Source of the DNA: an uncultured bacterium
GTDB taxonomy: Bacteria > Patescibacteriota > Minisyncoccia > Phycocordibacterales > UBA6065
Length of the DNA: 64,000 nucleotides
Reading direction: 5' to 3'
Assembly: GCA_966243015.1 (NCBI GenBank)
Contig: CBIMES010000001.1
Span: 298,076 to 362,075 of the forward strand
The notes beneath the pieces were generated by a model. That model searched no databases. It was not told where the DNA came from and saw nothing but the letters and a program-made list of their open reading frames with translations. Positions 29,779 to 60,259 of the stretch are shown piece by piece; the first letter of the stretch is position 1, and each line of letters opens with the position of its first letter. The translations under genes were made by a program, and so were the position numbers.

Positions 29779-30051
29779 TTACGACGTTTGTGGGGAGGTT
29801 TCAAGTGCCTCGACTCGACCATCCAACTTGTCGAATTCGACGCGGGAAACCTTGCGAGTTTCCTGATCATCAAGACGAGCGATAACTATATCGAATCGAT
29901 TATTCATCTTTCGCTCAAGATTATCGATCTTTGCATCGAGCCTCTTTTCAATTCCCTCTATTTTTACATTCAGATGCGCAAAGCCATTCATCGTCATCCC
30001 AGCGAGTCTCTCCAGGGTCATACCCTCAAAATTTCCAGTCTCATGTGTCAT
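29779..30051 (-). CDS. Small coiled-coil protein, paralog A of a four-member family; lies inside the grpE-dnaK operon
   Basis: N-terminal MTHETGNFEGMTLERL and heptad region GFAHLNVKIEGIEKRLDAKIDNLERK shared with paralogs B, C and D. Confidence 0.5.
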   Translation of the reverse strand: MTHETGNFEGMTLERLAGMTMNGFAHLNVKIEGIEKRLDAKIDNLERKMNNRFDIVIARLDDQETRKVSRVEFDKLDGRVEALETSPQTS

Positions 30052-30189
30052 GGTTTTTCGGTGTTATGTGATTCTGATAACGCTAATGTAGATTAAGCAT
30101 ATCAGCGACCAACACCACGAGGAACAATCACCCTGTCCCCATTTTGAGAGTCTCTTTATTCGTCTCGAAACCGACCAGCAGCGTGGCGC

Positions 30190-30735
30190 TTACGCAGCCT
30201 TTGCCTCACCCACCCTTACCTTCGGCGCGCGAATAGTCTTGCCATTGAGGCCATACCCCTTGGAGATGACGGATATGACTTTGTTGGCCTGAGAAGCATC
30301 GTCGACAGGCACAAACTCAATTGCCTCGTCCCGATTCGGGTCAAAGGCCTGGCCCAGAGGATTCACCTCGGTGAGGCCGTTCTGCTCGAGAACAGACCTG
30401 AGCTGGGTGTGAATGTGCTCCACGCCGGCTCGCCAGTTCTTGTCCGCCTTCTCCCAGGCCTCCTTGTTGGCAAAGGCCATCTCGAAGCTCTGGAGGACAG
30501 GAATGAGCTCCTCGACAAGCCCTTCGGTGGCGAGCTTGCGGTACTCAATCAGACTCTCATCCATGCGCTTCTTGGCGTTGGCAAAGTCGGCCTTGGCGCG
30601 CTGCCAACCCGCGAGATACTCGTCTCGCTCGGCCCTTACCTTATCAAGCTCGAAAACAGGCGCGGCCGCTTCCGCTGCGACAGGAGCCGCGGCGTCAGCC
30701 TGAGTGTCGGGATTCTTGTTCTCGTTTTCGTTCAT
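30190..30735 (-). CDS. grpE: Nucleotide exchange factor GrpE
   Basis: Typical GrpE coiled-coil plus C-terminal beta domain (FDPNRDEAIEFVP...). Confidence 0.9.
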   Translation of the reverse strand: MNENENKNPDTQADAAAPVAAEAAAPVFELDKVRAERDEYLAGWQRAKADFANAKKRMDESLIEYRKLATEGLVEELIPVLQSFEMAFANKEAWEKADKNWRAGVEHIHTQLRSVLEQNGLTEVNPLGQAFDPNRDEAIEFVPVDDASQANKVISVISKGYGLNGKTIRAPKVRVGEAKAA

Positions 30736-30812
30736 GGCTTTCGTGGTGGTTACTGCCTTCTAATGTGCAGACATCATAAATAAAAAATCGTTCATAATCA
30801 ACAAGCGAGAGA

Positions 30813-30898
30813 CCCTCTCTGGAAAAGCCTATTGAAGCGCGACGGCGCGTAAATGAGAAAATCCCCACCAGGGGATTTTCGTGCTTTTCCAGAGAGGG
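30813..30898. promoter_or_regulatory. Nested inverted repeats upstream of grpE and downstream of rpsI: an outer 16-bp perfect IR enclosing a terminator-like hairpin
   Basis: ccctctctggaaaagc ... gcttttccagagaggg, with an inner gaaaatcccc acca ggggattttc. Confidence 0.3.
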
Positions 30899-30909
30899 CC
30901 TCGAGCGTC

Positions 30910-31320
30910 TTATCGCTTCGACCACTGTGGGCTCTTTCGCGCCTTGACCTTTCCGAACTTCTTTCGCTCCTTCGCGCGAGGGTCTCGCTTGAGGAAGGTG
31001 AGCTTCTTGAGCTTCTTTCGGAGCTCAGCGTCGTAGTCGAGGAGGGCTCGAGAGATAGCGTGTCGGAGAGACTCAGCCTGAGAGTGGATGCCGCCGCCCG
31101 AGAGGACTGCGGTGACCTTGAACTTCTGGGCGATCTTCGACTTAGTGAAGGCGTCAGTCGCGATGCCGCGGAGCTCCTCGGTAGCGAAGTAGCCCTCGAG
31201 GGTCTTGCCGTTGAGCTCGAACGACTCTTTGGTCGCAGGGGTGATGCGGGCTCGTGCTCGAGCGGTCTTTCGTCGGCCGATGGCCTCGAAGTATTTGGTC
31301 TTGGTCTCTGCGGTAGTCAT
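30910..31320 (-). CDS. rpsI: 30S ribosomal protein S9
   Basis: C-terminal ...RDPRAKERKKFGKVKARKSPQWSKR and overall S9 similarity. Confidence 0.9.
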   Translation of the reverse strand: MTTAETKTKYFEAIGRRKTARARARITPATKESFELNGKTLEGYFATEELRGIATDAFTKSKIAQKFKVTAVLSGGGIHSQAESLRHAISRALLDYDAELRKKLKKLTFLKRDPRAKERKKFGKVKARKSPQWSKR

Positions 31321-31342
31321 AGTAAAAAGTTTCTTTTAAATA

Positions 31343-31693
31343 TTATTCGGTAACGATGAGATTCTTCATCATGCGGTCCTGAAGCTTGTTCTTCGGGAGC
31401 ATTCCTCGGACGGCGATGCGGAAGGCCTCTGACATGCCCTTCTTGGCGACGAGCGCCTTCATCGTCCTCTGGATGAGGCCGCCTGGGTAACCAGAGTAGG
31501 TCGAGTAGACCTTCTCGTCGAGCTTCTTGCTCGAGACGTCCGCCTTTGCGGCGTTGACGATGCGAACCTCAACGTCTGCCACGACGTTTGACTGGTAGTC
31601 AGCCGAGGTCTTGCCCATGAGGATCTTGGCGGCCTCCGAAGAGATGCGGCCGAGCTTCTTTCCCTGTGCGTCTATGGTGTGAGTAGTTCTCAT
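31343..31693 (-). CDS. rplM: 50S ribosomal protein L13
   Basis: L13 family pattern; lies directly upstream of rpsI. Confidence 0.9.
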   Translation of the reverse strand: MRTTHTIDAQGKKLGRISSEAAKILMGKTSADYQSNVVADVEVRIVNAAKADVSSKKLDEKVYSTYSGYPGGLIQRTMKALVAKKGMSEAFRIAVRGMLPKNKLQDRMMKNLIVTE

Positions 31694-31698
31694 GGTAA

Positions 31699-32052
31699 TT
31701 ATTTAACAAACTGGATATGAGCCATCTTCGCTCCGTCAGACTTTCGGAGAGGAAGCTTGACGACGCGGGTATATCCGCCCTTTCGAGCAGCATGCGCGGG
31801 AGCGATGACCTCGATGAGCTTCTTTGCAGCTCGGTAGTCGCCCACCTTGGTGGTGATGAGTCGTCGGGTGGCGAGAGTGTCGGTCTTCGCCTTGGTGACG
31901 AGCTTCTCGACAGACGATCGGATCTCCTTGGCCTTAGCCTCGGTAGTAGTGATGCCCTCGTGGATGACGAGAGATCGCAGGAGAGAGCGAATCAGCGCGC
32001 CTCGCTGATTCTTCTCTCGTCCGAATTTTCGTGTTGAATCGTGATGTCTCAT
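31699..32052 (-). CDS. rplQ: 50S ribosomal protein L17
   Basis: MRHHDSTRKFGREKNQRGALIRSL.. matches the L17 N-terminus. Confidence 0.9.
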   Translation of the reverse strand: MRHHDSTRKFGREKNQRGALIRSLLRSLVIHEGITTTEAKAKEIRSSVEKLVTKAKTDTLATRRLITTKVGDYRAAKKLIEVIAPAHAARKGGYTRVVKLPLRKSDGAKMAHIQFVK

Positions 32053-32110
32053 GTTCTTGGGTGAGCTCCTAGATTAGCTGTTTTTGCTTTATTTGTCCAG
32101 TTAAACGGTA

Positions 32111-33070
32111 TTACTTGAGGACGATGCCGTACTCAGAGAGTGCCTTTCGGATCTCCTGGAGGCCCTTTGGCCCGAGACCCTCGATGTTCTCGACGTCAAC
32201 CTCCTTCTTTCGCACGAGACCTCCGACGGTGCGGATGTTCGCGCCGGTGAGGGCGTTCGTGGTTCGCTGAGAGAGGTTGAGGCTCTCGATGCGGGTCTTG
32301 AGGAACTCGGTGTCGAGCTCTTTCTTGGGCGCAGGCGCCTCTACCTTCTCGACAGGGGCTGGAGCGATAATCTCCTCCTCCTTGAAGCCGACGATGGCTT
32401 TGAGCTGGTTGATCATGATGGCGATCGATCGCTCGAGGGCCTCGTGAGGGGTGATGGTGCCGTCGGTCTCGACGGTGATCTTGAGTCGGTTGAAGTCAGT
32501 TCGGTCGCCCACTCGCATGTTCTCCACCTCGTAGTTCACGCGGCGGATTGGGGTGAACGTGGCGTCGAGAGCAATGGTGCCAATGTCGACGCGCTCCTTC
32601 TGGAGGACGTCCTTTGAAACGTAGCCGAGACCCTGGGCAACGGTGATGTCGATGGCGAGCTCGGTAGTCTTGTCGGTGACGGACGCGATGTGAAGCTCTG
32701 GGTTGAGGATCTCAACCTGGCCAGGGACGGTGATGTCCGCGCCGGTAACGTCCTTAACGCCCTTTACCTTGATGGAAAGGGTCTGAGGCTCCGAAGTGAG
32801 CATCTTGATGCGGAGTCGCTTGAGGTTGAGGATAAGGGTAATGACGTCCTCCTTCACGCCCTGGATGGTCGAGAACTCGTGCGAAACACCGTCGATCTTG
32901 ATGTGGGTAATGGCAGCTCCCGGAAGAGACGAGAGGATGATGCGTCGGAGGCTGTTTCCGAGGGTGTGGCCGTATCCAGGGTAGAGACCGTCGATCTCGT
33001 ACACGCCGAGGAAGTCCTTCTCGAGGACAATCTTTGGCTTTGATGGAAGCACTACGTTGGTTTCGGTCAT
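32111..33070 (-). CDS. rpoA: DNA-directed RNA polymerase subunit alpha
   Basis: N-terminal dimerisation domain and C-terminal domain (..LNLSQRTTNALTGANIRTVGGL..). Confidence 0.9.
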   Translation of the reverse strand: MTETNVVLPSKPKIVLEKDFLGVYEIDGLYPGYGHTLGNSLRRIILSSLPGAAITHIKIDGVSHEFSTIQGVKEDVITLILNLKRLRIKMLTSEPQTLSIKVKGVKDVTGADITVPGQVEILNPELHIASVTDKTTELAIDITVAQGLGYVSKDVLQKERVDIGTIALDATFTPIRRVNYEVENMRVGDRTDFNRLKITVETDGTITPHEALERSIAIMINQLKAIVGFKEEEIIAPAPVEKVEAPAPKKELDTEFLKTRIESLNLSQRTTNALTGANIRTVGGLVRKKEVDVENIEGLGPKGLQEIRKALSEYGIVLK

Positions 33071-33110
33071 AGTTTTTATGTTAAAAACGCTCCTAATTCC
33101 CTTCTAATTA

Positions 33111-33713
33111 CTATCGGCTGTAGAACTCGATAACCTGGCCAAGGTTGAAAAGGTGCTCGGTCGGAACGTACTTCGGTGCGGCCTCAACGGTAGCGATCCT
33201 CTTGTCGGCGTCGTACGAGAGCCATGAAGGAATCTTCACGGTCTTCATCTTGTCGTCGAGGCTGACGAAGAGGGCCTTGTTCTGGCTGCCGGCTCGGACG
33301 GAGATCTTCTCGCCGACGACGGTCGAGTACGAAGGGATGGTTACCTTCTTGCCGTCAACGGTGATGTGTCCGTGAGAGACCATCTGTCGTGCCGCGAGGC
33401 GGGTCGCAGCGAAGCCGAGTCGGTAGACGACGTTGTCGAGTCGAGACTCGAGGCGGAGGAAGAGAGCCTGGGTGGTGTTACCCTTCTTGGCGGCAGACTC
33501 CTTGACGTACTTCTTGAACTGTCGCTCCGCGACGCCGTACGAGAGGCGCGCCTTCTGCTTCTCGAGCATCTGGGTGGCGAACTGACCCTTAGGTCGCTGA
33601 GGTCCCTTGCCTGCCTTTCGCTCCTGCCTCAGGGCGAACTTGGCGCTCTGGGTCTTCTCGAAGATGTTTGCTCCGAGTCGGCGGGCGATCTTGTATTTTG
33701 GTCCGATGATCAT
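33111..33713 (-). CDS. rpsD: 30S ribosomal protein S4
   Basis: MIIGPKYKIARRLG.. N-terminus and S4 domain. Confidence 0.9.
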   Translation of the reverse strand: MIIGPKYKIARRLGANIFEKTQSAKFALRQERKAGKGPQRPKGQFATQMLEKQKARLSYGVAERQFKKYVKESAAKKGNTTQALFLRLESRLDNVVYRLGFAATRLAARQMVSHGHITVDGKKVTIPSYSTVVGEKISVRAGSQNKALFVSLDDKMKTVKIPSWLSYDADKRIATVEAAPKYVPTEHLFNLGQVIEFYSR

Positions 33714-33737
33714 AGTGCTGCTGTTATATTAAAAGGC

Positions 33738-34163
33738 TTATACGCGTCGAGCTCGAGGCGGTCGAGGGCCGTTGTGAGGGACAGGGGTAACGTCCTTCAC
33801 CGAAGAGATGTTGATTCCCTTGGTGATAAAGCTTCGGACGGCTGACTCTCGGCCAGATCCGGTACCCTTGATAACTACCGCAACCTCCTTGAGGCCCATG
33901 GCCTGAACCTTGGTCGCGAGAACCTCACCCACCTTCGCAGCCGCGAACGGGGTTCCCTTCTTCGCACCCTTGAATCCGAGGGCGCCGGCAGACGATGACG
34001 CTACGGCGTTACCCGATGCGTCGGTGACGAGGCACATCGTGTTGTTGTAGGTCGACTGGACATAGAGGATGCCCGACTCAACCTTCTTCTTCGAAGACGA
34101 GGTCTTTGCGGGAGCTGCCGCTACCTTTACCTCTCCTTCTGCTGCTTTCGTGGTCTTAGCCAT
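33738..34163 (-). CDS. rpsK: 30S ribosomal protein S11
   Basis: ..GILYVQSTYNNTMCLVTDASGNAV.. S11 signature. Confidence 0.9.
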   Translation of the reverse strand: MAKTTKAAEGEVKVAAAPAKTSSSKKKVESGILYVQSTYNNTMCLVTDASGNAVASSSAGALGFKGAKKGTPFAAAKVGEVLATKVQAMGLKEVAVVIKGTGSGRESAVRSFITKGINISSVKDVTPVPHNGPRPPRARRV

Positions 34164-34190
34164 AATTAGGGAAATTCTTGGGATTAATTA

Positions 34191-34571
34191 TTACTTCTTA
34201 GCCTCTACCTTTCGTCCGGTACCCATGGTCTTTCGGGTGTTTCCGCGTCGGGTTCGAGAGTTGGTCTTGGTCCTCTGGCCGTTTACCGGGAGGCTTCGAG
34301 CGTGCCTTACGCCTCGGTATGCCTTGATGTCCTTGAGTCGCTTGATGTTAGCGGAAACCTCTCGCTTGAGGTCACCCTCGATCTTGAAGGTCTCGATGAT
34401 CTTTCGGATCGCGTTCTCCTCGTCGGCAGTCACCTCCTTCGCCTTCTTGTCGAAAGCAACCTTCGCCTCGGCGAGGATTTTCTGGGCGCGCGAGCGACCG
34501 ATACCGTAGAGAGTCGTGAGAGCGATCTCTATCTTCTTTTCGTCTGGGAGGGTGATACCGAGGATACGCAT
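34191..34571 (-). CDS. rpsM: 30S ribosomal protein S13
   Basis: MRILGITLPDEKKIEIALTTLYGIGRSRAQ.. S13 signature. Confidence 0.9.
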   Translation of the reverse strand: MRILGITLPDEKKIEIALTTLYGIGRSRAQKILAEAKVAFDKKAKEVTADEENAIRKIIETFKIEGDLKREVSANIKRLKDIKAYRGVRHARSLPVNGQRTKTNSRTRRGNTRKTMGTGRKVEAKK

Positions 34572-34660
34572 GTCGTTGGCTTTTTTATATAAGAATTAAG
34601 AGTTTTCCATACTAGCACAGAATAAAGTTACTGTAAACTCCTGAGAGTTTACAGCATCCT

Positions 34661-34777
34661 TTAGCCCTGTCGCTGCTTGTGGCGGGGGTTCGATTTGCAG
34701 ATGACGTACACGTAGCCCTTTCGTCGGACGACCTTGCACGTTGCGCACTTCTTCTTTACTGATGATTTTACTCTCAT
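34661..34777 (-). CDS. rpmJ: 50S ribosomal protein L36
   Basis: Manual translation gives [38 protein letters not shown] (38 aa). Below the ORF-track cutoff. Confidence 0.8.
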
Positions 34778-34804
34778 GGTATTGCTGTTACGAAAACCTG
34801 ATGA

Positions 34805-35017
34805 TTACAAACGCTGAATAATTCGTCCCTTCCCGCCGTACGGCTCAAGCTCGAGCTTCACTTTGTCACCCACGAGCACCCTGATGCGGTTCATCCTCAT
34901 CTTGCCCGCGAGGTAGGTGAGCAATTCCGTGTCATCCTCGAGCCTCACTCGAAAGAAGGTGTTGGGAAGTGCCTCCGTAACGACGCCGATAACGCTTGTC
35001 TTGTTTGTATCAGTCAT
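34805..35017 (-). CDS. infA: Translation initiation factor IF-1
   Basis: S1-like 70-aa protein, ...[39 protein letters not shown].. Confidence 0.9.
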
Positions 35018-35082
35018 GTATTAGAACGTCTGGATAGATTAAACCAAAGCGCGACGGTTGTCAAACGTCGCGCCCCACCCTG

Positions 35083-36438
35083 CTAGATGGCTTTCTTGAC
35101 GGTTATGTCCGAGACGTCCGTCGGGAAGGTCTTTCGCCAGAACGGTCGGATAGAGACCTCGACTTTCTCGATCATCGGGAAGCCCTGGGTAATGGTTGGG
35201 ACCTCGGCGGACTTTGCCCCGGCGAGCTTCTGCTTGAAGGTCGCCTCGTCATAGAGCCACTCGAACTGGGCGTCACCTTGGAGGGTGAATGCGACGCCCT
35301 CTGCCGCAGGGTCAAAGCCGTCGCGAGGGGTAAAGGTGAGGCTGCGGATGTCCTTGATGGTGATCGGCTCGTTCTGGTAGCCGTTTACCTTGATGGCCGC
35401 GAGCTTCTCGCTGAGCTTCTGGATGTCGAAGAAGGCCGCCGAGAGGGTGCACTCCATCTTGATAAGCACCTCGGTCGACGAGACGTTCTCCTGAGGGAGG
35501 GTCGCGCAGCCGATGGTGTGGGCGCCCGAGAAGAAGACCGAACCCTCGGGAACCTGGGCCTCCGCCTGCTTGAGAAGCTCGACGGTCGCCTTGGTCTTGA
35601 TGTCTGCCTGGGCCTTGGTCATGTCAGCATCAGAAACGACCCTGACGGTACCCGCAAAGCCGCCCGCGAGCGGGCTCGACGGCTTTGACTTTGCATAGAA
35701 CGCGTTGTAGCGAGGATCGCCCTTGAAGCCAGGGATAGTGAAGTCCTTGAGGCCAACGTTGTATTTGTCCCCCGCCTCGTCCGCGTAGACGACGGCTTCG
35801 ACTGATCCCGGGGTCGACCCGTTCTTTCCCGGAACGGTCACCGAGTCCGCGATGCGGAAGATGAGGCCCTCGGGGGTCTCGAATCGGGTGTTCTTCACAA
35901 GCCGCTGGGCGGTCGCGTTGTAGTTGTTGTAGATGATGATGGTTCCCGAGGCCTGCGTGGTCACCTGCTTTTCGCCGGTGGCCTTGAGCTGAACGGAGCC
36001 GGTCTGCTTGATAACCTTGGGCTGGAACGAGAGGCCTGCCGCGGCGCTCGATTTTGTCGCCGTAACCGCATCGTTGAGAGTGGCAGCCTGGATTCGAGGG
36101 GTGACCGTCACGGTTGCACCGTGGAATACGGTCGAAACGACGAAGACGAGGGCAAGGGCCGCCAGAACGACGCCTGCAAAAACCCATTTTTTCTTGCCGC
36201 CCTCGCTTACGGACTCCTCCTCGCTGTAGTCGAACTCCTCGTGCACGTCGTGCGCGTGGACACGCGACTCGTGTCGCGTCTCCTGGCGAGACTCATAGCG
36301 AATCTCCTGCTCGGTCTCAGGCTCCTCGACGACGGTCTCCTTGACTCGGACCTCGGTTCGGGTGCGATGAGACGGGAGGGGCACGTTTCTGATCGATCGG
36401 CCCTTCGGCACGATGTCTTGGATTGGATTTCGTGGCAT
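35083..36438 (-). CDS. Membrane-anchored hypothetical protein (single N-terminal TM, large extracytoplasmic domain)
   Basis: Start at MPRNPIQ (36438). Basic/acidic N-terminal region, a TM segment WVFAGVVLAALALVFVV, then a long soluble domain. Confidence 0.55.
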   Translation of the reverse strand: MPRNPIQDIVPKGRSIRNVPLPSHRTRTEVRVKETVVEEPETEQEIRYESRQETRHESRVHAHDVHEEFDYSEEESVSEGGKKKWVFAGVVLAALALVFVVSTVFHGATVTVTPRIQAATLNDAVTATKSSAAAGLSFQPKVIKQTGSVQLKATGEKQVTTQASGTIIIYNNYNATAQRLVKNTRFETPEGLIFRIADSVTVPGKNGSTPGSVEAVVYADEAGDKYNVGLKDFTIPGFKGDPRYNAFYAKSKPSSPLAGGFAGTVRVVSDADMTKAQADIKTKATVELLKQAEAQVPEGSVFFSGAHTIGCATLPQENVSSTEVLIKMECTLSAAFFDIQKLSEKLAAIKVNGYQNEPITIKDIRSLTFTPRDGFDPAAEGVAFTLQGDAQFEWLYDEATFKQKLAGAKSAEVPTITQGFPMIEKVEVSIRPFWRKTFPTDVSDITVKKAI

Positions 36439-36499
36439 ATGTGGTGAAATTATACTATATGAACCCAAAGACCGTCAGCTGTTAATAACTGGAAATGAG

Positions 36500-37708
36500 C
36501 TAGTTCGAGCCGTTTCTGCCGACAAAGGCCGCCGCGAGTGCGAGCGAAACGTCCTTGCGCGCGTGCGGCGCGAAGGAGACAGCGCCCTTCAGACTGTCAG
36601 GGGTAAGAAGGTTGACGCAGAACGGGCCGCCGTCATCGCCGAAGTGGTCGGCCTTCTGCTCCTTGATGCTTGATATGAAGAAATGAACGAGGTCACTGTC
36701 GGCGCTGACGAAGAGCTCGCGCGGAAGAGAGGATTTATGGGCAAGTCGGGAAAGAGCCATTTGAAGAGCCACCGCCCACTCGTCAGACGCCGCTTTCAGT
36801 GCCTCAGCGAGCCTGCCCTTCACGGCTGAACCCGCATGGCCATCGGAGTGAATCCTCAGAAGGGACTCAGCCTCGCCGTACGTGGTCTGAAGCGTCCAGG
36901 CGACCGTCCTCACGAGCGACCTGAAGCCCGCCGGGAAGCTCACCGTCTCCAGAATAAGGCCGCCTTTTACGACCGATACCTCGGAAATCTCGCCGCCAAG
37001 GTCGAGGAAGGTGAAGTCGTCGATGTCGTGGAACGAGTCACGGACCATCGAGAACGCCACGAGCGGAGACGAGAACATCTTGGTGTCCTTCGGGTGGAAG
37101 GTCGTAAGGGAGACCTCAGAGATGCGGTCAATCACCGGCTTCGGCGCAAGGCTCATAAAGAGCGAGATCTCCGCCTGCTTCGCCTTCTTGTCATAAGGCT
37201 GGGCGACGTGATAGCCGTCGAGGGAAACGTGCACCACGCGCTTTTCGAGGACCGCGAGCCTGTCAGCGAGGTCAGACGAGCGAGCGTGTATCGTCGCGAG
37301 GCCAAAGCGCTTCTCGTGCTCTGAAACAATACGGGCAACAAAGCTCTTGGTAAAGGAGAATGACTTCTTTCGGTCGATGCCGATGATCTTGGTCTGGGTC
37401 ACGCACCACGGAGACGAGAAAACGTAGGCGACGTGCCTGATGCGATGCGAGCTGCGCTTTCTCGGGAGGTGAATGTGCCGAAAGCCGTCTTTAAGCACCG
37501 CGGCGTTGACCCGAGCGAGAGCCGCGAGCATGTCGCGGAAAAATCGCTCCGGCTCAGGCGTCTCGGCGAATGAGATTGTCTCGCGGACGGTATAGAAGAC
37601 GCGGGTCGGGACACCCTTCTCGAGGAGAGCGAGCGCCGCGCCGACGGACGACGATCCGATGTCGAATATGAGAGCAAGGTCCGTTTTAGGTCTGCCAAAA
37701 GAGAACAT
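36500..37708 (-). CDS. Actin-like ATPase (ASKHA) superfamily protein (FtsA/PilM/Ppx-like fold), hypothetical
   Basis: LALIFDIGSSSVGAAL (phosphate-1-like) and FLDLGGEISEVSV (phosphate-2-like). Start trimmed to the ATG at 37708. Confidence 0.5.
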   Translation of the reverse strand: MFSFGRPKTDLALIFDIGSSSVGAALALLEKGVPTRVFYTVRETISFAETPEPERFFRDMLAALARVNAAVLKDGFRHIHLPRKRSSHRIRHVAYVFSSPWCVTQTKIIGIDRKKSFSFTKSFVARIVSEHEKRFGLATIHARSSDLADRLAVLEKRVVHVSLDGYHVAQPYDKKAKQAEISLFMSLAPKPVIDRISEVSLTTFHPKDTKMFSSPLVAFSMVRDSFHDIDDFTFLDLGGEISEVSVVKGGLILETVSFPAGFRSLVRTVAWTLQTTYGEAESLLRIHSDGHAGSAVKGRLAEALKAASDEWAVALQMALSRLAHKSSLPRELFVSADSDLVHFFISSIKEQKADHFGDDGGPFCVNLLTPDSLKGAVSFAPHARKDVSLALAAAFVGRNGSN

Positions 37709-37845
37709 GTGAATAGTATACACCGTCCCTCTCGGACTGGCACGCATATCCGCCTGCTGGCGGATTGCTCCGCTCGCGCCGTCGCGCTGCGCGAGGCCAG
37801 CCGAGAGGGACGTGTAAATACTTTTGAAGATTCCAAACGCATATA

Positions 37846-37869
37846 AACGGCTCAATGCCGTGAGCCGTT
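37846..37869 (-). terminator. Terminator hairpin after gene 37878..38618
   Basis: aacggctca atgccg tgagccgtt. Confidence 0.35.
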
Positions 37870-37877
37870 TAATACGG

Positions 37878-38618: not shown

Positions 38619-38777
38619 GGAAAAGAATTATACCGCATCGAACCCATAAGCCCACGCTTTTTGACCATTTGACCACACTCATGACCGACTCTGTTTATTT
38701 ATATTTAGTTGAACCTTCCAAACGAACAGCTGTGCGAAAATAGGGGAACAAACATTATAAAACCACCAACACATACC

Positions 38778-39044
38778 ATGAACTACCCACCAGATCAGAT
38801 TGTAACCGTCAGCATACTCACAAGGGTTCTCGACGATAGATTTGGGGCCTTCGAATCAAAGATGATGGAGGGATTCGAGGCGCTCGAAAGGAAAATCGAT
38901 ATCGTTGACACCTCATCAATGGAAAGGCACGAAGCCCTCCTCAAGAAAATCGAAGCGGTCGGCAAAGAATCAGAACAACGAGACAAGTTGCTCAGCGCCC
39001 AGATAATGCACCTAACCATCACGAAAATGGACAAGGAGGATTAA
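38778..39044 (+). CDS. Small coiled-coil protein, paralog B
   Basis: RFGAFESKMMEGFEALERKIDIVD and C-terminal LSAQIMHLTITKMD. The ORF track gives 38709 as start; the internal ATG at 38778 is more likely. Confidence 0.5.
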   Translation: MNYPPDQIVTVSILTRVLDDRFGAFESKMMEGFEALERKIDIVDTSSMERHEALLKKIEAVGKESEQRDKLLSAQIMHLTITKMDKED

Positions 39045-39322
39045 TCCTCCCACGCATCCTCGAGGCGCGTTGTGGCGCCTGTCGCATCCTTGGTGTAAAT
39101 AAAGAAATCCTGCTGCGCAGTCCTTCCCCGCACAACACATTTGATCCCCGCCTGAATGGGCAGGATTTTAAGACGCGGGTTCCCCGTCTTTACGGGCACG
39201 ATGACTGACAGGACGATCTTGGTGACGGAATCGAGGTCTTTGGCGACCTTAAGCACGCCTTCGGCCTCGGGTATGTAGGTCTGATGAGAGTCGCTGAACT
39301 TGTTGCCGCGCAGGAGGCTCAC
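39041..39322 (-). CDS. Hypothetical protein (93 aa); its stop overlaps the paralog-B stop within the palindrome ggaggattaatcctcc
   Basis: GC3-rich coding pattern. Convergent 4-nt overlap with the coiled-coil paralog B gene. Confidence 0.5.
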   Translation of the reverse strand: MSLLRGNKFSDSHQTYIPEAEGVLKVAKDLDSVTKIVLSVIVPVKTGNPRLKILPIQAGIKCVVRGRTAQQDFFIYTKDATGATTRLEDAWED

Positions 39323-39346
39323 GATGGCCGTTAAATTATGATGCGA

Positions 39347-41161: not shown

Positions 41162-41204
41162 ATACTATCGCAAAACGGTTTTTTTTCAAAAAGCCCCAAA
41201 GAAA

Positions 41205-41226: not shown

Positions 41227-41238
41227 CGAGACAATCAG

Positions 41239-48232: not shown

Positions 48233-48237
48233 GGTGG

Positions 48238-49512: not shown

Positions 49513-49569
49513 GACGTAAAGTATACCACAATGAAAAAACCGCCGAGATTTCTCTCGGCGGTTTTTTGT

Positions 49570-50598: not shown

Positions 50599-50669
50599 AC
50601 TTATTCTTTTATCATTGGTTCCATGTTACGTCAAGGACACACCCGTGTCAAGGGTCGTGTCAATGTTCT

Positions 50670-53549
<2,880 letters not shown>

Positions 53550-53558
53550 GGACGGAAA

Positions 53559-54533
53559 TTAGCGGACGGGCGACACGGGAACAGCGACGCCCTTCTCGCG
53601 GAGGACTGGGTAAATCTGAGGGTCGATAGTTCGCTCGAAGCAGTGCTCCCCTGCTGGGTGTCGCCAGTTAGACTCGCCCGAGATTCCGTACTCGCGGTAC
53701 GAGACCATGCTTTCGACGGCCCGCGCCTCATCATCGGTCGTGTCACGGGCAAACGTCGCGCAGAGTTTGAAAGACTGGGGACCCTGCTTCTGGTAGATAT
53801 ACGCCGCGCCAGTCTCTGGATCCGCCGGAAGCTCGAAGTACGAAATCGTGTCATTGAGCTCAGAGAGCTGAGTCGGGAGCAGACCCTTCTGCTGCCACAC
53901 ATTCACGAGCTGCCACTGAATGTTCTGGAGATCATTCACGCGAGTCTGGTCGAAGCGAATATTGCGAGCGGTCGCCGGAGAGCCCATGACGGCAAAGCCC
54001 CAGACGAGCGAGCCCAGTACGAGGGCAATCGCCGCCGAGATAATGGACCAGGAAACCTTCTTGTTGTCCTCCGTCGGCCTCCTGATGTCATAGATATAGT
54101 AGCCAAAGACCGCGCCTGACACGACGAGAGTCGCGATGACCTTGGCGATAAAGCGGGCGGTAAGCTCGCCCCCGAGGAATACGTTAAGGACCGCGATGAG
54201 GTCGCCTACGACGACGATACCAGCCGCAAAGAGCGTGAGGTATACAAGCCACTTGCGAACCGCCACGTCTTTCTTGGCGGGATTCCTGGCGATATCAACG
54301 CGAATATAGCGCGAGAGAGCAACGTAGATCGGGAAGACGATGATGAGGGACGCAATGGCAAACCTCATGCCACCCGTGTAGCCGTAGGAGTAAACAAGGT
54401 TCACCGCGTCGGGAAAGGTTGCGTTGATAATGGCAAAGAGAAGCGCGAGAAGGCTGCCGGCGCTGACATAAAGGGCAATCATTGCCCCTACCGATACGAA
54501 GAAATCCTTTGGCGTGGTATGTGGTTTGTCCAT
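53559..54533 (-). CDS. Hypothetical polytopic membrane protein
   Basis: About six TM helices plus a C-terminal soluble region. Lies directly downstream of leuS. Confidence 0.5.
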   Translation of the reverse strand: MDKPHTTPKDFFVSVGAMIALYVSAGSLLALLFAIINATFPDAVNLVYSYGYTGGMRFAIASLIIVFPIYVALSRYIRVDIARNPAKKDVAVRKWLVYLTLFAAGIVVVGDLIAVLNVFLGGELTARFIAKVIATLVVSGAVFGYYIYDIRRPTEDNKKVSWSIISAAIALVLGSLVWGFAVMGSPATARNIRFDQTRVNDLQNIQWQLVNVWQQKGLLPTQLSELNDTISYFELPADPETGAAYIYQKQGPQSFKLCATFARDTTDDEARAVESMVSYREYGISGESNWRHPAGEHCFERTIDPQIYPVLREKGVAVPVSPVR

Positions 54534-54685
54534 AGTACGTTTGTATTATGTGATTTGACCATCATACGCCCAAAATGAGAATGGCTCAACCTTTAGCTTT
54601 CTTTTATCAAATTGCAAGCCGTCACATGCTACGATTTTCTCACAGACAGAGAACGCATCATTTATCAGACTAACGAAACAAAAGC

Positions 54686-55003
54686 ATGGATGAATCATCG
54701 CAGACGCTGACGGTAGGGGTATTCAAGGAGATTCTCGCGACGGAACTCAAGGCCGGGCTCGACGCGCTCGAAGCGAGGACTGATAGGAAATTCGAGAGAC
54801 TGGAGTCAAAGATGATGGAGGGATTCGATGCTCTCGATAAGAAAATTGACTTCGTTGACGCGAACCTGAGCGGCAGAATAGACAAGGTTGAGATAGAGCT
54901 CAAGTCCGTGAAGACAGGCGCCGACCGCCAGTATCGCGCTCTCACGTCACAAATCCAGCACCTGGCCCTGACCAAAGCCGACTGGCCTCACGAATCTGCA
55001 TAG
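54686..55003 (+). CDS. Small coiled-coil protein, paralog C
   Basis: KFERLESKMMEGFDALDKKIDFVD and C-terminal LTSQIQHLALTKADW. Confidence 0.55.
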   Translation: MDESSQTLTVGVFKEILATELKAGLDALEARTDRKFERLESKMMEGFDALDKKIDFVDANLSGRIDKVEIELKSVKTGADRQYRALTSQIQHLALTKADWPHESA

Positions 55004-55038
55004 AACGCAAAAGGCCCCTTTCGGGGCCTTTTCTACTT

Positions 55039-55287
55039 TTAGGCGATCGGAGCGGCGTCCGAAGAGCCAGACTCGCACTCCTTGCAGTGCTTTCGGTGGG
55101 TGACGACGAGGTACACCGCCGACACTCCCACGAGAACGTATACAGCGAGCTCGACGATTGGCCACCTATAGAGAATGAGGTCGACCACGTTCCAGTTCTT
55201 TGCGAAGAAGCCGCTGAGTCCGACGAGACCCCAGTTGAGGGCACCAATCCAGACGAGAATCGAGGCAATCTTGTGAAGGATTTTCAT
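55039..55287 (-). CDS. DUF378-like small membrane protein
   Basis: IGALNWGLVGLSGFF motif typical of the DUF378 family. Confidence 0.55.
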   Translation of the reverse strand: MKILHKIASILVWIGALNWGLVGLSGFFAKNWNVVDLILYRWPIVELAVYVLVGVSAVYLVVTHRKHCKECESGSSDAAPIA

Positions 55288-55411
55288 AAAAGTATGGTTA
55301 CGATGATTAAAATATAACTACTTCGGTTACCCATTAAGTATATCAACTTGGCAAGAGTCAACGAGCAAGTTATCCACCATGCAAAAGCCGCCCCTCGGCG
55401 GCCTTTTGGTA

Positions 55412-56506
55412 TTAGATTTTGAATTCGATTACTTCCCCATCCTTCACGACGTACTCCTTGCCCTCGGTCCTGATGAGGCCCTTTTCGCGGGCGGCGCCGT
55501 GGGAGCCGGCGGCAATAAGCTTGTCCCACTCTATGACCTCGGCGCGGACGAACTTGTCCTTGAAATCACCGTGGATGGCGGTTCCCGCCATCGGCGCGGT
55601 CCAGCCCCTCTGGATGGTCCAGCCGCGGGTCTCCTGCTCGCCGGTGGTGAAATAGGTAATGAGACCCAGCATCTCGTAGCTCTTCCTGATGAGGTTGTCG
55701 ATGCCGTTGTCGATGCCGCCGAGGTCTCGCATCTCCTTCTTCTCGTCCTCGGTCATGTCGCGCACGTCGTTCTCGATACCTGCGTCGACGATAACGTAGC
55801 TCGAGCCGCTTGAGGCGAGGAAATCCATGAGCTTCTGGAAGCGCTCATCCTTGGTCTCGTCGAGGTTCACGCCGCCCGACTTCTTGTTGAGCACGTAAAG
55901 GATCTTCTTGGAGGTGAGAAGGTGGAGCGACCTGAGGAACGGCACCTCGACCTCCTCGACAGACACCGACGTTGCCAACTGACCGGCCTCGAGGGCCTTC
56001 TGGAGCCTCTCGAGCAACCCCGCCTCGATGATTGCTTCTTTCTTGCCCGCCTTGATCTCCTTACCAAGGTTTGCGTGTCGCTTGGTGACGGTCTGAAGGT
56101 CCGCCATGATGAGCTCGAGATTGATGACCTCGATGTCCTTCATTGGGTCAATCTTGCCGTCGACGTGAATGATGTCGGTGTCCTCAAAGATGCGGACCAC
56201 CTCGGCTATGGCGTCTGTCTCTCGAATGTTTGAGAGAAATTTGTTTCCGAGGCCCTCTCCGTCGGAGGCGCCCTTCACGAGACCCGCGATGTCCACGAAC
56301 TCGACGGCCGCGGGGACGATCTTCTTGGTCTTGGAGAACTCAGCGAGCTTGTACAGGCGTTCGTCAGGCACGGCAACCACGCCCACCGACGGGTCGATGG
56401 TGGCGAACGGGTAGTTCGCGATGAGCACACCCTTCTTTGTCAGGGCGTTGAACAGGGTTGATTTGCCGACGTTAGGGAGACCGACGATGCCAATTGATAG
56501 TGCCAT
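55412..56506 (-). CDS. ychF: Ribosome-binding ATPase YchF
   Basis: [19 protein letters not shown]-loop and a TGS-like C-terminus. Confidence 0.9.
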
Positions 56507-56551
56507 AGGTTTCCTACGATAGCATTTTGCGACTGGATTTCAAAGGAAAGC

Positions 56552-57136
56552 CTACTTTCCCCTCCTTCCCAGCTTCCCCACCTTCTCCAGAAGCTTGAGT
56601 CGCTGACCGTCCGTCATTTTCTTCATGCCCGAGAACCAAGTCTTGCGTAGTGGCGCGAATCCCGAGAAGCGAAGCACGCCGCGGACATAACTGTTGATGT
56701 TACCGCCGAAGAGGGTCCACAAGAGAAACGGATGGGTGTCTGACGTGACAATGACGCGGGCTGACCTGCCCTTGAGCCGTCGGTACCAGCCCGGGATGAG
56801 GCCCTTCCTGAAGTTGAAGGCGAAACCCGGCATCCACGCACGGTCGATAAGGCCCTTCAAGATGGCTGGCACGTCAGACCACCAAATCGGGAACACCGTG
56901 ACAAAGTGATTCGACCACTTCACGTCCTCCTGAAATTTCACGAGGTCAGGCTCGTATGCCTGGATGACTTTGTAGCCCTTGTGAAGGATCGGATCGAACT
57001 TCATATCAGCGATCTTGGTGAGGCGCACCTCGTGGCCTGCGGCGCGAGCGCCGTCAGCGTACGACTGGGCGAGCGCCGCCGTGAACGAGTCGTTATCCGG
57101 GTTCGCCATGAGGATGAAGATGTTTTTCTTTTTCAT
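56552..57136 (-). CDS. Flavodoxin-like fold NAD(P)H-dependent oxidoreductase
   Basis: MKKKNIFILMANPDNDSF.. N-terminus and overall NAD(P)H dehydrogenase (quinone)-like pattern. Confidence 0.7.
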   Translation of the reverse strand: MKKKNIFILMANPDNDSFTAALAQSYADGARAAGHEVRLTKIADMKFDPILHKGYKVIQAYEPDLVKFQEDVKWSNHFVTVFPIWWSDVPAILKGLIDRAWMPGFAFNFRKGLIPGWYRRLKGRSARVIVTSDTHPFLLWTLFGGNINSYVRGVLRFSGFAPLRKTWFSGMKKMTDGQRLKLLEKVGKLGRRGK

Positions 57137-57215
57137 TGGGTGTGCGCGTGACGAATATTAAGAGAGGGATAAACGCAGAGCGCGCCCTCGGGCGCGCGTC
57201 GTGCGGATGCGAGGG

Positions 57216-57446
57216 CTACTTGCCGCCCATGAGCCTCGAGAGCTCGTCCTTGTGCTTTGCCATGATCTCCATGGCGACCGTCTGCTGGTCCCTGCCAGAC
57301 TTGAGGCCCTCCTGAAGCTCCTTGGCGAGATTCTCGAAGAACTCCGGGTTTCGCTCGACGAGGTCGAGGATCTTCTCCTGCTCAGCCTGAGGGACGTTCT
57401 TGAGCTGAGACTTCATTGCCTGCTTCATGAGAAATCGTTTGAACAT
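57216..57446 (-). CDS. Small hypothetical protein (76 aa)
   Basis: Helical composition. Lies between zwf and the oxidoreductase gene. Confidence 0.4.
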   Translation of the reverse strand: MFKRFLMKQAMKSQLKNVPQAEQEKILDLVERNPEFFENLAKELQEGLKSGRDQQTVAMEIMAKHKDELSRLMGGK

Positions 57447-57497
57447 GGGTGTTTGTGTGGTTATTACGGGTACGGCCAGGGCGCCGGTTTCGTCCTG

Positions 57498-58763
57498 CTA
57501 CTCTACCAAAAACGGCCTCTCGTCGCCATAGGTCTCGAGCGGCACCACGTCAAAGCAGTCCACGACGTGGTCAGCGTAGCGCCAGAGATGCTGAATCTCC
57601 TCGGATCCGACGAAGTCGCGCATCCTGCCGGCAAAGGCGTCAGAGAGAATGTTCGCGTAGGCGTCGCGGGTCCTCGGTATCTCGTTGACCTCGACACTTC
57701 CGTCACGCTCGGTCGTTACGATCTCCTGTCGCGGCTGGACGCTGACGCGAATGCTCTTGGGCACATCCGGCCTGTCCTTAAACACAACCTCCATGAACAC
57801 GTCAGGGCGAGGCATCCTCTTTCCGCCTTGAAGGGTCACGGGCACGCCCGCGAGCCTGCCGGACGCAAACGAGGTGATGACCTCGAAAGCAGTCTCGGTC
57901 TGAGAGCCCTCCCGCACGCCGGCCTCAGAGAGGTATCCCTCGTACTGGCCGCGACGCATGAGGTCGCACGTGTCCCGGGGGGCCGACAGCTTCGCAAGGG
58001 CGCTCGCCCGGGCGACCTGCCACATGTGACCTCTCGACTCAAGGGCCGTCGCCTCGGGTATGTCCGCGACGAGCACGGCGAGCATCTCGAGGACATGGTT
58101 CTGGCCCGTATCACGGAACGCGCCAACCTGCTCGTACGAGGCGCCCCGACCAAAGATACCGATACTCTCGAACATGGCGACGCGAATCGAGGCGACGTTC
58201 TCGGCCGTAAGGAGCTCGTCAAAGCCGGGAGTCCGCTCGTGAATGTCCATGAGGGCACGGAGCGCATCCTTGCCGAGGTAGTGGTCGATGCGGTACACCT
58301 GCTCCTCGTTGAGAAAATCGAAAAGGAGGTCATTGAGGGCGGCCGCGGACCCCTCGTCAGTGCCGAATGGCTTCTCAATAAGCAGTTTACCCTTGCCCTG
58401 CGAGATGACGAACTCCTCCTGAAGGTTCTCGATGACGGCCTTGTGCAACTGAGGCGCGAGCGAGAGATACACGATGGCCTCGCCCTCGACGCGCTCGGCA
58501 AGGTCGCCGTAGCCGCTGTGATCAGCGATATCCACCTGCGCGTACTCGACGCGGGAAAGGAAACCGGGATCATACGGCCTGAAACCCTGGATGAACGCGG
58601 CGAAATCGCCGTCACTCCAGTCTCGCCGGGAGACGGCGATGATCTTGGTCGGCATATGCGAGTCGCCCGAAAGGAAAAGGTCCTCGAGCGCGGGAAATAT
58701 CTTCTTTACGGCAAGGTCGCCGGTCGCGCCGAAGAGTATGAAAGTTGATGGATTCGAGTCCAT
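57498..58763 (-). CDS. zwf: Glucose-6-phosphate 1-dehydrogenase
   Basis: ILFGATGDLA, EKPFG and RIDHYLGK motifs. Confidence 0.9.
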   Translation of the reverse strand: MDSNPSTFILFGATGDLAVKKIFPALEDLFLSGDSHMPTKIIAVSRRDWSDGDFAAFIQGFRPYDPGFLSRVEYAQVDIADHSGYGDLAERVEGEAIVYLSLAPQLHKAVIENLQEEFVISQGKGKLLIEKPFGTDEGSAAALNDLLFDFLNEEQVYRIDHYLGKDALRALMDIHERTPGFDELLTAENVASIRVAMFESIGIFGRGASYEQVGAFRDTGQNHVLEMLAVLVADIPEATALESRGHMWQVARASALAKLSAPRDTCDLMRRGQYEGYLSEAGVREGSQTETAFEVITSFASGRLAGVPVTLQGGKRMPRPDVFMEVVFKDRPDVPKSIRVSVQPRQEIVTTERDGSVEVNEIPRTRDAYANILSDAFAGRMRDFVGSEEIQHLWRYADHVVDCFDVVPLETYGDERPFLVE

Positions 58764-58767
58764 GGAT

Positions 58768-59514
58768 TTAAAAAGAGTCGATATCGGTGAAGACGGCGGC
58801 CTTCTTCATCTCGTGCATGACGCGGGCGGGAGTCTCGTACACAGAACCGTCTGTGGCGAGAGCTCTCTTGAGCGCCGACTCCTTCGCCTTGCCCGAGGCA
58901 AAGAAGACGGCGACGTCGACACAGTCACGCATGAACGAGAGAGTCGTGGTGACGCGGGACGGGAACGTTCCCCTGTCGAGGGCCTCAAGCTCCTCGGCCC
59001 AACGCGCCCCCTGATAGCGCCCGTCGAACTCCTTGTCGGAATAGACGCCGGGGATGATTCCCGCAGTGTGCCCATCCTCGCCGATTCCATAGAGGCCGAT
59101 GACGATACCCTTGGGGAAGTCCTCGCGCCACTTCTTGAGCGCGGCGTCGTAGGAATCGCGAAGCTCGGCCGAGGTGCGACCAAGAAGCTCCGTCGGGATC
59201 GAGAAGGCGTCGTGCCTCACGAGCTTGTTCCAGAACGGGGTCGCCTGAAGCTGTGCGTAGTTGTTGATGTCGAGCTCGTCAGACACCCGCTCGTCAGTCA
59301 CGACCACGGTCATCTCCGAACTCAGGTTCTCCTCAGAGACGTGGTCGAGCACGCCGAGAGACGAACCGCCCGCCACGACAAAGAGCATCTCGGTTCCCGC
59401 GTACCTTTCGAAAAGGTCCGAGATCGCCTTACCGGCAGCCTCGCGCGGATTGTCGGAGACAATGACCTCGACGGCTCCGCGCGACCCGCCCTTGTGGTTC
59501 TGAGAGTCTTTCAT
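58768..59514 (-). CDS. pgl: 6-phosphogluconolactonase (NagB/Pgl family)
   Basis: Start trimmed to the ATG at 59514 so that it does not overlap the tRNA. Lies directly upstream of zwf. Confidence 0.75.
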   Translation of the reverse strand: MKDSQNHKGGSRGAVEVIVSDNPREAAGKAISDLFERYAGTEMLFVVAGGSSLGVLDHVSEENLSSEMTVVVTDERVSDELDINNYAQLQATPFWNKLVRHDAFSIPTELLGRTSAELRDSYDAALKKWREDFPKGIVIGLYGIGEDGHTAGIIPGVYSDKEFDGRYQGARWAEELEALDRGTFPSRVTTTLSFMRDCVDVAVFFASGKAKESALKRALATDGSVYETPARVMHEMKKAAVFTDIDSF

Positions 59515-59517
59515 GTG

Positions 59518-59590
59518 TGGACCATACCGGAATCGAACCGGTCGCCTCATCCATGCCATGGATGCGCTCTACCAAATGAGCTAATGGCCC
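59518..59590 (-). tRNA. tRNA-Ala (anticodon GGC)
   Basis: Manual fold gives a 7-bp acceptor stem with G3:U70, anticodon loop auGGCau and T-loop ttcgatt. CCA is not encoded. Confidence 0.8.
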
Positions 59591-59648
59591 GTGTTCCCAA
59601 GATCGGGATGCACATTAATGTAGCACAGCATCGGGGAAAAATACAAAA

Positions 59649-59674
59649 GGCCCGTTCGCGCAAGCGAACGGGCC
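59649..59674 (-). terminator. Hairpin (ggcccgttcgc gcaa gcgaacgggcc) with a T-run on the minus strand
   Basis: 11-bp perfect stem. Located between the D-paralog promoter region and tRNA-Ala(GGC). Confidence 0.35.
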
Positions 59675-59851
59675 GTATCAACCAACCAAAACAACTGACC
59701 AGGGTCCGAAACGGTAACCAGCCGTTAACCCTCTAGATAAATATTATACACCTAAATCGATAAAAAATCAATGACGCTTTTTATGAGAGCTTTATCACTG
59801 AAATGATACGTTTATGCCGCACGAAATTACAAACGATAGCAGAGAAAATAT

Positions 59852-60259
59852 ATGGCCCACGATACAGGACACACAATCACTATCGACACACTCAAGGAAA
59901 CCGTCGACGAAGCTTTCTCCAAGCTCTCGAGTGAAATATCATTCCAGGCTGAAGAGTCGAGACGGAGAGACGAGGAGCTGACCCGGTCGATTTCGAACCT
60001 TTCTAAAGAAATGAAAACTGGGTTTAATAAATTGGAAGAAAAGGACGAAAAACTCGCTGAAGCGATCTCGACTCTCTCCAAAGAGACGGCGGAAGGATTT
60101 GAAAAATCCAGACAAAAGGACGAGGAACTCGCACAGGCAATTCTCAACCTATCCAAGGAGATATCAGCCAGCTCCGAAAGATCGGAGCGAAGGGACCGGT
60201 CGCTTTCCGCGCAGATCCAGCACCTCGCGCTGACAAAGGCGGACGCGCAGCATGAGTAA
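59852..60259 (+). CDS. Small coiled-coil protein, paralog D (contains 3 x 25-aa repeats)
   Basis: C-terminal LSAQIQHLALTKADAQHE. Internal repeats DEELTRSISNLSKEMKTGFNKLEEK, DEKLAEAISTLSKETAEGFEKSRQK and DEELAQAILNLSKEISASSERSERR. Confidence 0.6.
   Translation: MAHDTGHTITIDTLKETVDEAFSKLSSEISFQAEESRRRDEELTRSISNLSKEMKTGFNKLEEKDEKLAEAISTLSKETAEGFEKSRQKDEELAQAILNLSKEISASSERSERRDRSLSAQIQHLALTKADAQHE
59969..60193 (+). repeat. Three imperfect 75-bp tandem repeats inside the paralog-D coding sequence
   Basis: gacgaggagctgacc... / gacgaaaaactcgct... / gacgaggaactcgca..., each 75 nt. Confidence 0.6.

Follow-up and report, generated by a model that had tools for sequence, protein, structure and literature searches.

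A rare family of small coiled-coil proteins encoded at conserved genomic positions in one Paceibacteria clade

The 64,000-nt stretch of bacterial DNA analysed here (the window) carries four genes, A to D, for small proteins of a rare, unnamed family that, as judged from searches of sequence collections, is confined to one Paceibacteria clade of the Candidate Phyla Radiation (CPR). The gene products are constrained paralogues whose sequences suggest acidic cytoplasmic rods, probably assembled as parallel trimers, that could act as adaptors or scaffolds; we hold this reading with roughly even confidence. An earlier note on this DNA had described the four genes as an expanding, lineage-specific family of unknown function. 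The genes are the following.

29779..30051, minus strand: paralogue A, translation of 90 amino acids (aa); a divergent member within the gene string grpE-A-100aa-dnaK.
38778..39044, plus strand: paralogue B, translation of 88 aa; in the slot between an ispD-like gene and alaS.
54686..55003, plus strand: paralogue C, translation of 105 aa; near leuS, with a DUF5671 gene on one side and a DUF378 gene on the other.
59852..60259, plus strand: paralogue D, 135 aa with 25-residue internal repeats; in the slot between pgl and ddl, flanked by tRNA-Ala(GGC) and tRNA-Ala(UGC).

Homology of the four paralogues

The translations, coordinates and strands of the four open reading frames (ORFs) agree exactly with those that the earlier note quoted. 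The N-terminal segment x-[LIVM]-T-[VIL], the core motifs ESKMMEGFEALERKIDIVD / ESKMMEGFDALDKKIDFVD / NGFAHLNVKIEGIEKRLDAKID and the C-terminal motifs LSAQIMHLTITKMD / LTSQIQHLALTKADW / LSAQIQHLALTKAD that it listed are all present, and it placed the genes correctly: A in a heat-shock operon (its neighbourhood here being that of grpE and dnaK), B near alaS, C near leuS, and D between tRNA-Ala genes. BLASTP, a family hidden Markov model (HMM) and syntenic orthologues together bear out that these small coiled-coil proteins form a real family of paralogues. The possibility that the shared motifs reflect chance was examined, and the similarity of B, C and D is significant, with composition-adjusted BLASTP E-values of 2e-15 (B-C), 1e-12 (C-D) and 2e-9 (B-D). 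By these scores B, C and D are clearly homologous. The paralogues share 30-40% identity among themselves, and the SAQIQHLALTKAD codons that C and D have in common show synonymous differences.

Paralogue A is weak in pairwise BLASTP (A-C 8e-6, A-D 0.006, A-B 0.13) and lacks the SAQIQHL..TKAD end. Its C-terminus reads ...T-R-K-V-S-R-V-E-F-D-K-L-D-G-R-V-E-A-L-E, that is, a K-[AV]-[DS] motif followed by an extra heptad segment. The family HMM, scanned against the six-frame ORF set of the window (n = 3481), retrieves A at 4e-6, and no unrelated ORF falls below E = 1. A matches the family member P0133 at E 1e-9. The syntenic orthologue of A in a related genome (L013:1026-1340), which has grpE on one side and on the other a 100-aa gene that lies upstream of dnaK, encodes MKGEFVTKEYLREALDSQTDKITDMMMEGFSHFNIKFE...LSSRIDDLAETKVSRPEFATLKGRVRTLE and possesses both the family core MMMEGF and the L-A-x-T-K motif (as LAETKVS). 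A and this orthologue group with P0018, P0066 and P0133; in all five, an additional heptad segment, ..L..RV..LE, comes after T-K-[AV]-[DS]. Because of the HMM score, the match to P0133 and the MMMEGF and LAETK motifs of the orthologue, A is counted as a divergent member of the family. Neither phmmer nor the family HMM detected a fifth copy among the six-frame ORFs.

Distribution of the family

Members are rare. An indexed search of 5.8 billion proteins yielded 18 relatives. When 1.84 billion cluster representatives were scanned exhaustively with HMMER, about 20 small, full-length members emerged, and over 1000 other library matches were limited to the repeat region of large coiled-coil proteins. 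The 185,579 GTDB species genomes gave just one locus, which belongs to a Candidatus Paceibacterota metagenome-assembled genome. A metagenome collection added five members, and IMG/VR contained none. These counts support the claim that the family is lineage-specific. Scans of the four proteins and 25 relatives against Pfam, NCBIfam, PHROGs and PADLOC returned nothing beyond sub-threshold coiled-coil noise, in agreement with the description of its function as unknown.

All members whose surroundings can be read sit among core genes of Paceibacteria type, and none is on a viral contig. Genes in the window (DUF5671, DUF378 and compact housekeeping operons) and type-IV pilin genes in related loci support a genome of CPR type. 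Two B-like relatives, P0008 and P0028, share an extra C-terminal tail, ...K(T/A)(S/T)(G/T)SGSLV, beyond TKAD, and this tail might be a short linear motif such as a degradation or docking tag.

Protein architecture

The family proteins are 85-135 aa long and acidic (pI about 5; D+E 20%, K+R 15%), and they possess no signal peptide or membrane segment. Three conserved elements are recognized. The N-terminal cap is x-[LV]-T-[VL]-G-x-F-[KR]-E-[LI], and its Thr is the sole invariant residue of the 29-sequence alignment. The central segment has the consensus L-E-S-K-M-M-E-G-F-x-A-L-D-x-K-I-D-x-V, and the C-terminal consensus is R-D-R-x-L-S-A-Q-I-Q-H-L-A-x-[TS]-K-A-D. AlphaFold models computed with the family alignment depict C as a single helix over residues 3-98 (pLDDT, the predicted local distance difference test, 88) and D as a single helix over residues 11-134 (pLDDT 93) that begins right after the N-terminal Thr. 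Foldseek, run with the single-helix model against PDB, gave zero matches, as expected of a lone helix. One long α-helix per protein would be unstable on its own, so assembly into a coiled-coil rod is expected. From the helix lengths of the models and a rise of 0.15 nm per residue, the predicted rods would be about 12-18 nm long.

Hydrophobic periodicity peaks at 3.6 residues, and core-type residues make up about 32% of the sequence. Such a narrow seam is typical of a mixed heptad/hendecad coiled coil and would not suit a lipid-binding face or a charged single α-helix. Internal repeats have lags of 11 (C and P0014), 18 (P0005) and 25 residues (D, z = 9), and the spacing between the core G-F and the K of T-K-A-D is 26, 33, 40, 51, 55, 58 or 87, values that can all be written as 33 ± sums of 7 and 11. 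These values are compatible with a rod whose length varies in steps of 7 and 11 residues (11, 18 and 25 being such sums), with helical register preserved.

The rod repeats belong to the KID/hendecad type that is widespread among large coiled-coil proteins of bacteria. The KID repeat model PF02524 is matched by 3 of 19 members (best E 2.8e-4), and the match covers the rod repeats, not the family-specific ends. KID/hendecad coiled coils (P0026-P0041) have the same type of 11-residue repeat, x-L-D-x-K-I-D-x-x-F-x; they differ in being large, often membrane-anchored or surface proteins that lack the LTVG cap, the SKMMEGF core and the SAQIQHLAxTKAD end. The family profile also matches the central helix of influenza HA2 (…LERRIENLNKKMEDGFLD…) at E about 5e-4 through a common K-M-x-x-G-F-x-D core, where HA2 L-E-R-R-I-E-N-L-N-K-K-M-E-D-G-F-L-D stands beside family L-E-K-R-L-D-D-R-I-S-A-L-E-S-K-M-M-E-G-F-E-A-L-D. 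HA2 is a trimeric coiled coil; just about 45 residues are concerned, nothing else is in common, and the resemblance is probably convergent.

The C-terminal motif and the oligomeric state

Coiled coils interrupted by β-layers break the heptad register by 6 or 2 residues and follow the rule d-e-f-g/c-[b1-b2-b3]-e-f-g-a, with a small hydrophobic residue, preferably A or V, at the central position b2; their sequences conform to [aliphatic]-A-T-K-[polar]-[DE] or I-E-N-K-A-D, and the known examples are homotrimers plus one pseudo-threefold monomer (Hartmann et al., 2016, PMC4786415). The family consensus L-A-[LF]-[TS]-K-A-D(-W) contains both T/S-K and K-A-D, and in the K-A-D register its centre is A or V. 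Members with a downstream coil fit the pattern L(d)-A-x-[TS]-[K-(A/V)-(D/S)]-x-x-[DE]-hydrophobic(a)-x-x-hydrophobic(d), which amounts to a 6-residue insertion. P0018, P0066, P0133 and the A orthologue all have 10 residues (4 + 6) from the last upstream core Leu to the first downstream core residue, and regular a/d heptads come next. The relatives with a downstream coil thus show the hexad/nonad register break that characterizes β-layer coiled coils. HMMER places the family K-[AV]-[DS] on the KAD β-layer of the crystallised GCN4-IENKADKAD-GCN4 construct 5APT with the downstream a/d positions in register; this alignment, made with the profile of the downstream-coil subgroup, has an E-value of 0.045 and serves as a register check, not as evidence of homology. 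In the A of the window the motif has 3 extra residues, which suits a nonad register and places Glu at position a. The N-terminal x-L-T-V-G-x-F would also fit the rule, with x-L-T as b1-b2-b3 and F at a. The best PDB resemblances, all weak, are to trimeric coiled coils (the SadA fusion 2YO3, HSBP1 3CI9, HA2 and 5APT). Since the motif fits the register of the β-layer rule in the relatives with a downstream coil, β-layers are known only from threefold structures, and the PDB resemblances are trimeric, the proteins are probably parallel trimers end-capped by β-layers.

The family resembles the stand-alone β-layer coiled coils of Hartmann et al. in several respects. Both are stand-alone and possess no enzymatic domain, both have [aliphatic]-A-x-[TS]-K-[AV]-[DS/E] with a Thr/Ser-Lys pair and a 6-residue break into e-f-g-a, and both mix heptad and hendecad periodicities. 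The window family differs in having one motif at the extreme C-terminus and a possible N-terminal x-L-T cap in place of tandem nonads, in lacking a nuclease or membrane domain, in its restriction to a CPR clade, and in its 4-5 paralogues per genome. Several observations weigh against β-layer-capped trimers. B, C and D end 3-6 residues past the motif, and the register check is confined to relatives. Placing the break at A-[LF]-[TS] gives a large L or F centre, which is atypical; the K-A-D placement fits better. The AlphaFold monomer models of C and D keep the C-terminal motif helical. Profile similarity to the β-layer families PF12644 (DUF3782) and PF07798 (DUF1640, CCDC90-like) is nil, with 0 of 19 and 0 of 6 members matching at E ≤ 1 to 5.

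The same features may be read in other ways. Dimeric or tetrameric scaffolds of the type of the cytoskeletal or division factors ZapB, DivIVA and crescentin, with TKAD as a helix C-cap or partner-binding motif, would be suited equally well by the single-helix models and the 3.6-residue periodicity, and hendecad-rich coiled coils are found in dimers and tetramers too. The helical TKAD of the monomer models and the missing link to DUF3782 and DUF1640 also speak for such scaffolds. The exact β-layer register in all members with a downstream coil, its alignment on 5APT, the trimeric PDB resemblances and the lack of any match to ZapB, DivIVA or crescentin models speak against them, and we consider them rather unlikely. 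Amphipathic helices that coat lipid, membrane or storage granules through 11-residue repeats, as in phasin, apolipoprotein, LEA or PspA-like proteins, would account for the 11-residue periodicity and for the weak sub-threshold matches to Apolipoprotein, Phasin and ApoLp-III models and to PDB ApoA-I. These matches lie far below their cut-offs: Apolipoprotein reaches at most about 24 of the required 90 bits, and Phasin 21 of 28.8. For PF01442, with its cut-off of 90 bits, the best Pfam E is 1.7e-4 (4 of 19 members match), one member scores 19.5 bits, and PDB ApoA-I reaches 24 bits. With about one core-type residue per helical turn, the apolar surface is a narrow seam and not a broad face; the proteins are acidic and highly charged, and their strongly conserved end motifs would be unexpected in surface-coating helices. 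A lipid-coating role is therefore improbable. Phasin itself was rejected (PF05597 13.3-21.1 bits against 28.8; TIGR01837 14-15 bits against 94.7; narrow seam). The family resembles phasins and exchangeable apolipoproteins (PF05597, PF01442) in being helical with 11-residue periodicity and weak profile matches, and no polyhydroxyalkanoate-synthesis genes are among the annotated genes of the window.

Genomic positions and evolution

From about 27 to 62 kb of the window (27000-62000), the minus strand encodes nearly all housekeeping genes. B, C and D occupy short gaps and are read from the plus strand, each being antisense to the genes on either side. The neighbours of B are the IspD-like gene and, on the side of alaS, a gene of 93 aa; the stop of B overlaps this convergent gene by 4 nt, and no hairpin follows B. 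C is two genes away from leuS. A is collinear with its neighbours in grpE-A-100aa-dnaK, an order that is kept in two related genomes (the window and L013). The positions occupied by family members recur as follows.

ispD-like/alaS slot: B; P0006 (121 aa, L013); the L018 member at 2581-3045.
pgl/ddl slot, between tRNA-Ala(GGC) and tRNA-Ala(UGC): D; P0005 (L014/L015); the L016 member.
proS/dnaE slot, outside the window: P0002, P0011, P0012, P0013, P0015, P0018 and the L020 member.
proS/dnaE slot, on a short contig from the same European Nucleotide Archive (ENA) study as the window organism: P0004.

P0005 in L014 is the positional orthologue of D and is flanked by the same two tRNA genes. The relatives in the proS/dnaE slot are also antisense to both flanking genes. 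P0004 is a likely fifth copy that may come from the same genome as the window. Flanking housekeeping proteins of L013 are 86-99% identical to those of the window, against 47% for the A slot (90 vs 104 aa) and 59% for the B slot (88 vs 121 aa); for L014 the values are 70-90% against 38% for the D slot. The ratio of nonsynonymous to synonymous substitution (dN/dS), measured among orthologues of the proS/dnaE slot, is 0.10-0.21. This low ratio indicates real genes under purifying selection that encode a rod apparently tolerant of change. Since the slots are conserved in related genomes, the copies represent an old set of paralogues and not a recent expansion. The earlier description of the family as expanding is thus not upheld, the housekeeping proteins of the compared genomes being 70-99% identical. 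Nor do the unrelated contexts of the genes point to mobility: there are no viral or mobile matches, and flanking repeats were not met in the upstream and downstream sequences that were read, no dedicated repeat search having been made.

Two further explanations concern the origin of the genes. A recently expanding, mobile or phage-derived family filling intergenic gaps would explain the presence of four copies in 64 kb, the antisense placement of B, C and D in short gaps, with C and D each carrying its own terminator, and the location of D between two tRNA genes. Every slot, the tRNA-Ala pair included, is however kept in related genomes, the paralogues are as divergent as noted above (30-40% identity), IMG/VR gave zero matches and PHROG none that was significant, the flanks that were read revealed no repeats (within the limit just stated), and the G+C content at the family copies is the same as that of the genome. 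This explanation is largely refuted, and we give it very little probability. A similarity arising by chance from low-complexity coiled-coil composition, or ORFs that are not genes, could be suggested by the inflation of scores that such composition causes, by the more than 1000 library matches to the repeat region alone and by the weakness of A on its own in pairwise BLASTP. It is contradicted by composition-adjusted pairwise E-values as low as 2e-15, by N-terminal, core and C-terminal motifs that are collinear in about 30 sequences, by dN/dS of 0.1-0.2 among orthologues of the proS/dnaE slot, by the synonymous differences in the SAQIQHLALTKAD codons of C and D, and by the existence of syntenic orthologues. 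It is refuted, with almost no probability left to it.

Terminators and upstream sequences

Sequences around C and D include the following elements.

54555..54582, plus strand: sigma-70-like TTGACC-16-GAGAAT upstream of C, a consensus match only; it includes TTTGACCAT.
55009..55032, plus strand: terminator-like hairpin after C (fold -17.3 kcal/mol, z -4.1), then CUACUUUU.
60261..60294, plus strand: hairpin with a 15-bp stem directly after the D stop (fold -26.1 kcal/mol, z -8.3), then UUAUCUU.

On these predictions C and D are stand-alone genes, each with its own terminator-like hairpin. The upstream motif TTTGACCAT, which the earlier note had reported as shared by B and C, is indeed present upstream of both; its frequency is near chance, and when the region upstream of B is aligned to that of its orthologue, TTTGACCAT falls in a gap. 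The window holds five copies of TTTGACCA where 1.4 would be expected, 2 of 100 shuffles also reach five, and all five occurrences (27290, 38660, 38668, 43988 and 54554) are on the plus strand. The one at 27290 sits in the gap just downstream of dnaK. Because of its near-chance frequency and its absence upstream of the B orthologue, TTTGACCAT was dropped as evidence of co-regulation. The region upstream of D can be aligned to that of its orthologue no further than the tRNA.

Possible functions

The rods would bind partners or sister paralogues through their conserved centre and ends, a functional reading to which we give low confidence. B and C may co-assemble, since their centres are almost identical. 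The position of A in line with grpE and dnaK, together with a faint likeness to HSBP1, would place at least one member in proteostasis or stress, and a stress link of A is possible. The earlier question of a phasin, stress or scaffold-like role can be narrowed to this extent: phasin is set aside by its sub-threshold scores and the narrow seam, and stress or scaffold roles are possible, A lying inside the grpE-dnaK operon in two related genomes. The 100-aa protein between A and dnaK (29439-29741, minus strand) has no Pfam match; a near-identical gene of the same length occupies the same position in L013, and it appears to be a conserved unknown member of the grpE-dnaK string.

HSBP1 (PF06825; PDB 3CI9) and the family share a length of about 76-100 aa, an acidic, all-helical composition and a coiled-coil core, and there is local similarity in M-x-[DE]-[KG]-F...[LM]-S-S-R-I-D-D-L. 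HSBP1 is a trimeric regulator of a chaperone pathway, and paralogue A is encoded inside a chaperone operon; an hhalign comparison of HSBP1 with the profile of the A-type subgroup gives a probability of 68%. HSBP1 is a protein of eukaryotes whose partner, heat-shock factor (HSF), does not exist in bacteria, and the likeness may be convergent coiled-coil sequence. Further points weigh against a stress role of this kind. The best PF06825 score is 18.7 bits (P0133) against a threshold of 28.6, with human HSBP1 as control at 104 bits, and the resemblance is gone when the whole-family profile is used. The grpE-dnaK association is found in two close genomes only (GrpE 90% identical), and the A-like P0133 is located between rpe and tkt. 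A scan of the window for the CIRCE (controlling inverted repeat of chaperone expression) element at ≤3 mismatches found none. Homology to HSBP1 was not accepted, given the sub-threshold Pfam score and its loss with the whole-family profile. A bolder version, in which A, B, C, D and the copy of the proS/dnaE slot would form CPR-specific, β-layer-capped homo- or heterotrimeric rods and A, co-expressed with GrpE and DnaK, would be an HSBP1-like regulator or thermosensor of chaperones, is quite improbable. If true, it would provide a bacterial counterpart, in a window without CIRCE, to a regulator so far known from eukaryotes.

Other features of the window and of related loci

Two adjacent genes between infA and the ispD-like gene (35083-36468 and 36500-37855, both minus strand) are called as 451-aa products with no Pfam match on record; L013 has the same pair, at 451 and 400 aa. 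The leucyl-tRNA synthetase gene (50670-53549, minus strand, 959 aa) has a Pfam NUDIX match between synthetase domains, an unusual insertion, if real. At 63392-63709 (plus strand), between the uvrC-side genes and uvrA, is a basic, low-complexity ORF of 105 aa, for which the family HMM indicates no relationship; L014 has a plus-strand gene of 113 aa in that slot. L014 also has small genes at 4450-4869 and 10109-10585 (both plus strand) amid minus-strand housekeeping genes; they have no Pfam match and are non-members by HMM.

The region 6000-14000 has a G+C content of 0.44-0.48, compared with about 0.57 elsewhere, and is a compositionally distinct island. Its genes include a PheS-core-like class II aminoacyl-tRNA synthetase paralogue (6547-7677, plus strand), a class II aminoacyl-tRNA synthetase of D/K/N type (7781-9226, minus strand), two tandem dCTP-deaminase-like genes, a methyltransferase, an Orn/DAP/Arg (ornithine/diaminopimelate/arginine) decarboxylase and an LD-carboxypeptidase. 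The island may have been acquired horizontally.

Significance

The genomes of CPR bacteria, including Paceibacteria, are tiny, and a large part of their genes lacks an assigned function. The presence of four or five constrained paralogues at fixed positions implies that the family does something the lineage needs. It is an unnamed new family of a known kind of protein, with no mechanistic surprise, and is of use in annotating CPR genomes and in the structural biology of coiled coils, where it offers a compact natural test case for β-layer capping and for length variation of coiled coils with register preserved. If the member linked to grpE and dnaK acts on chaperones, it would be an added component of bacterial heat-shock control.

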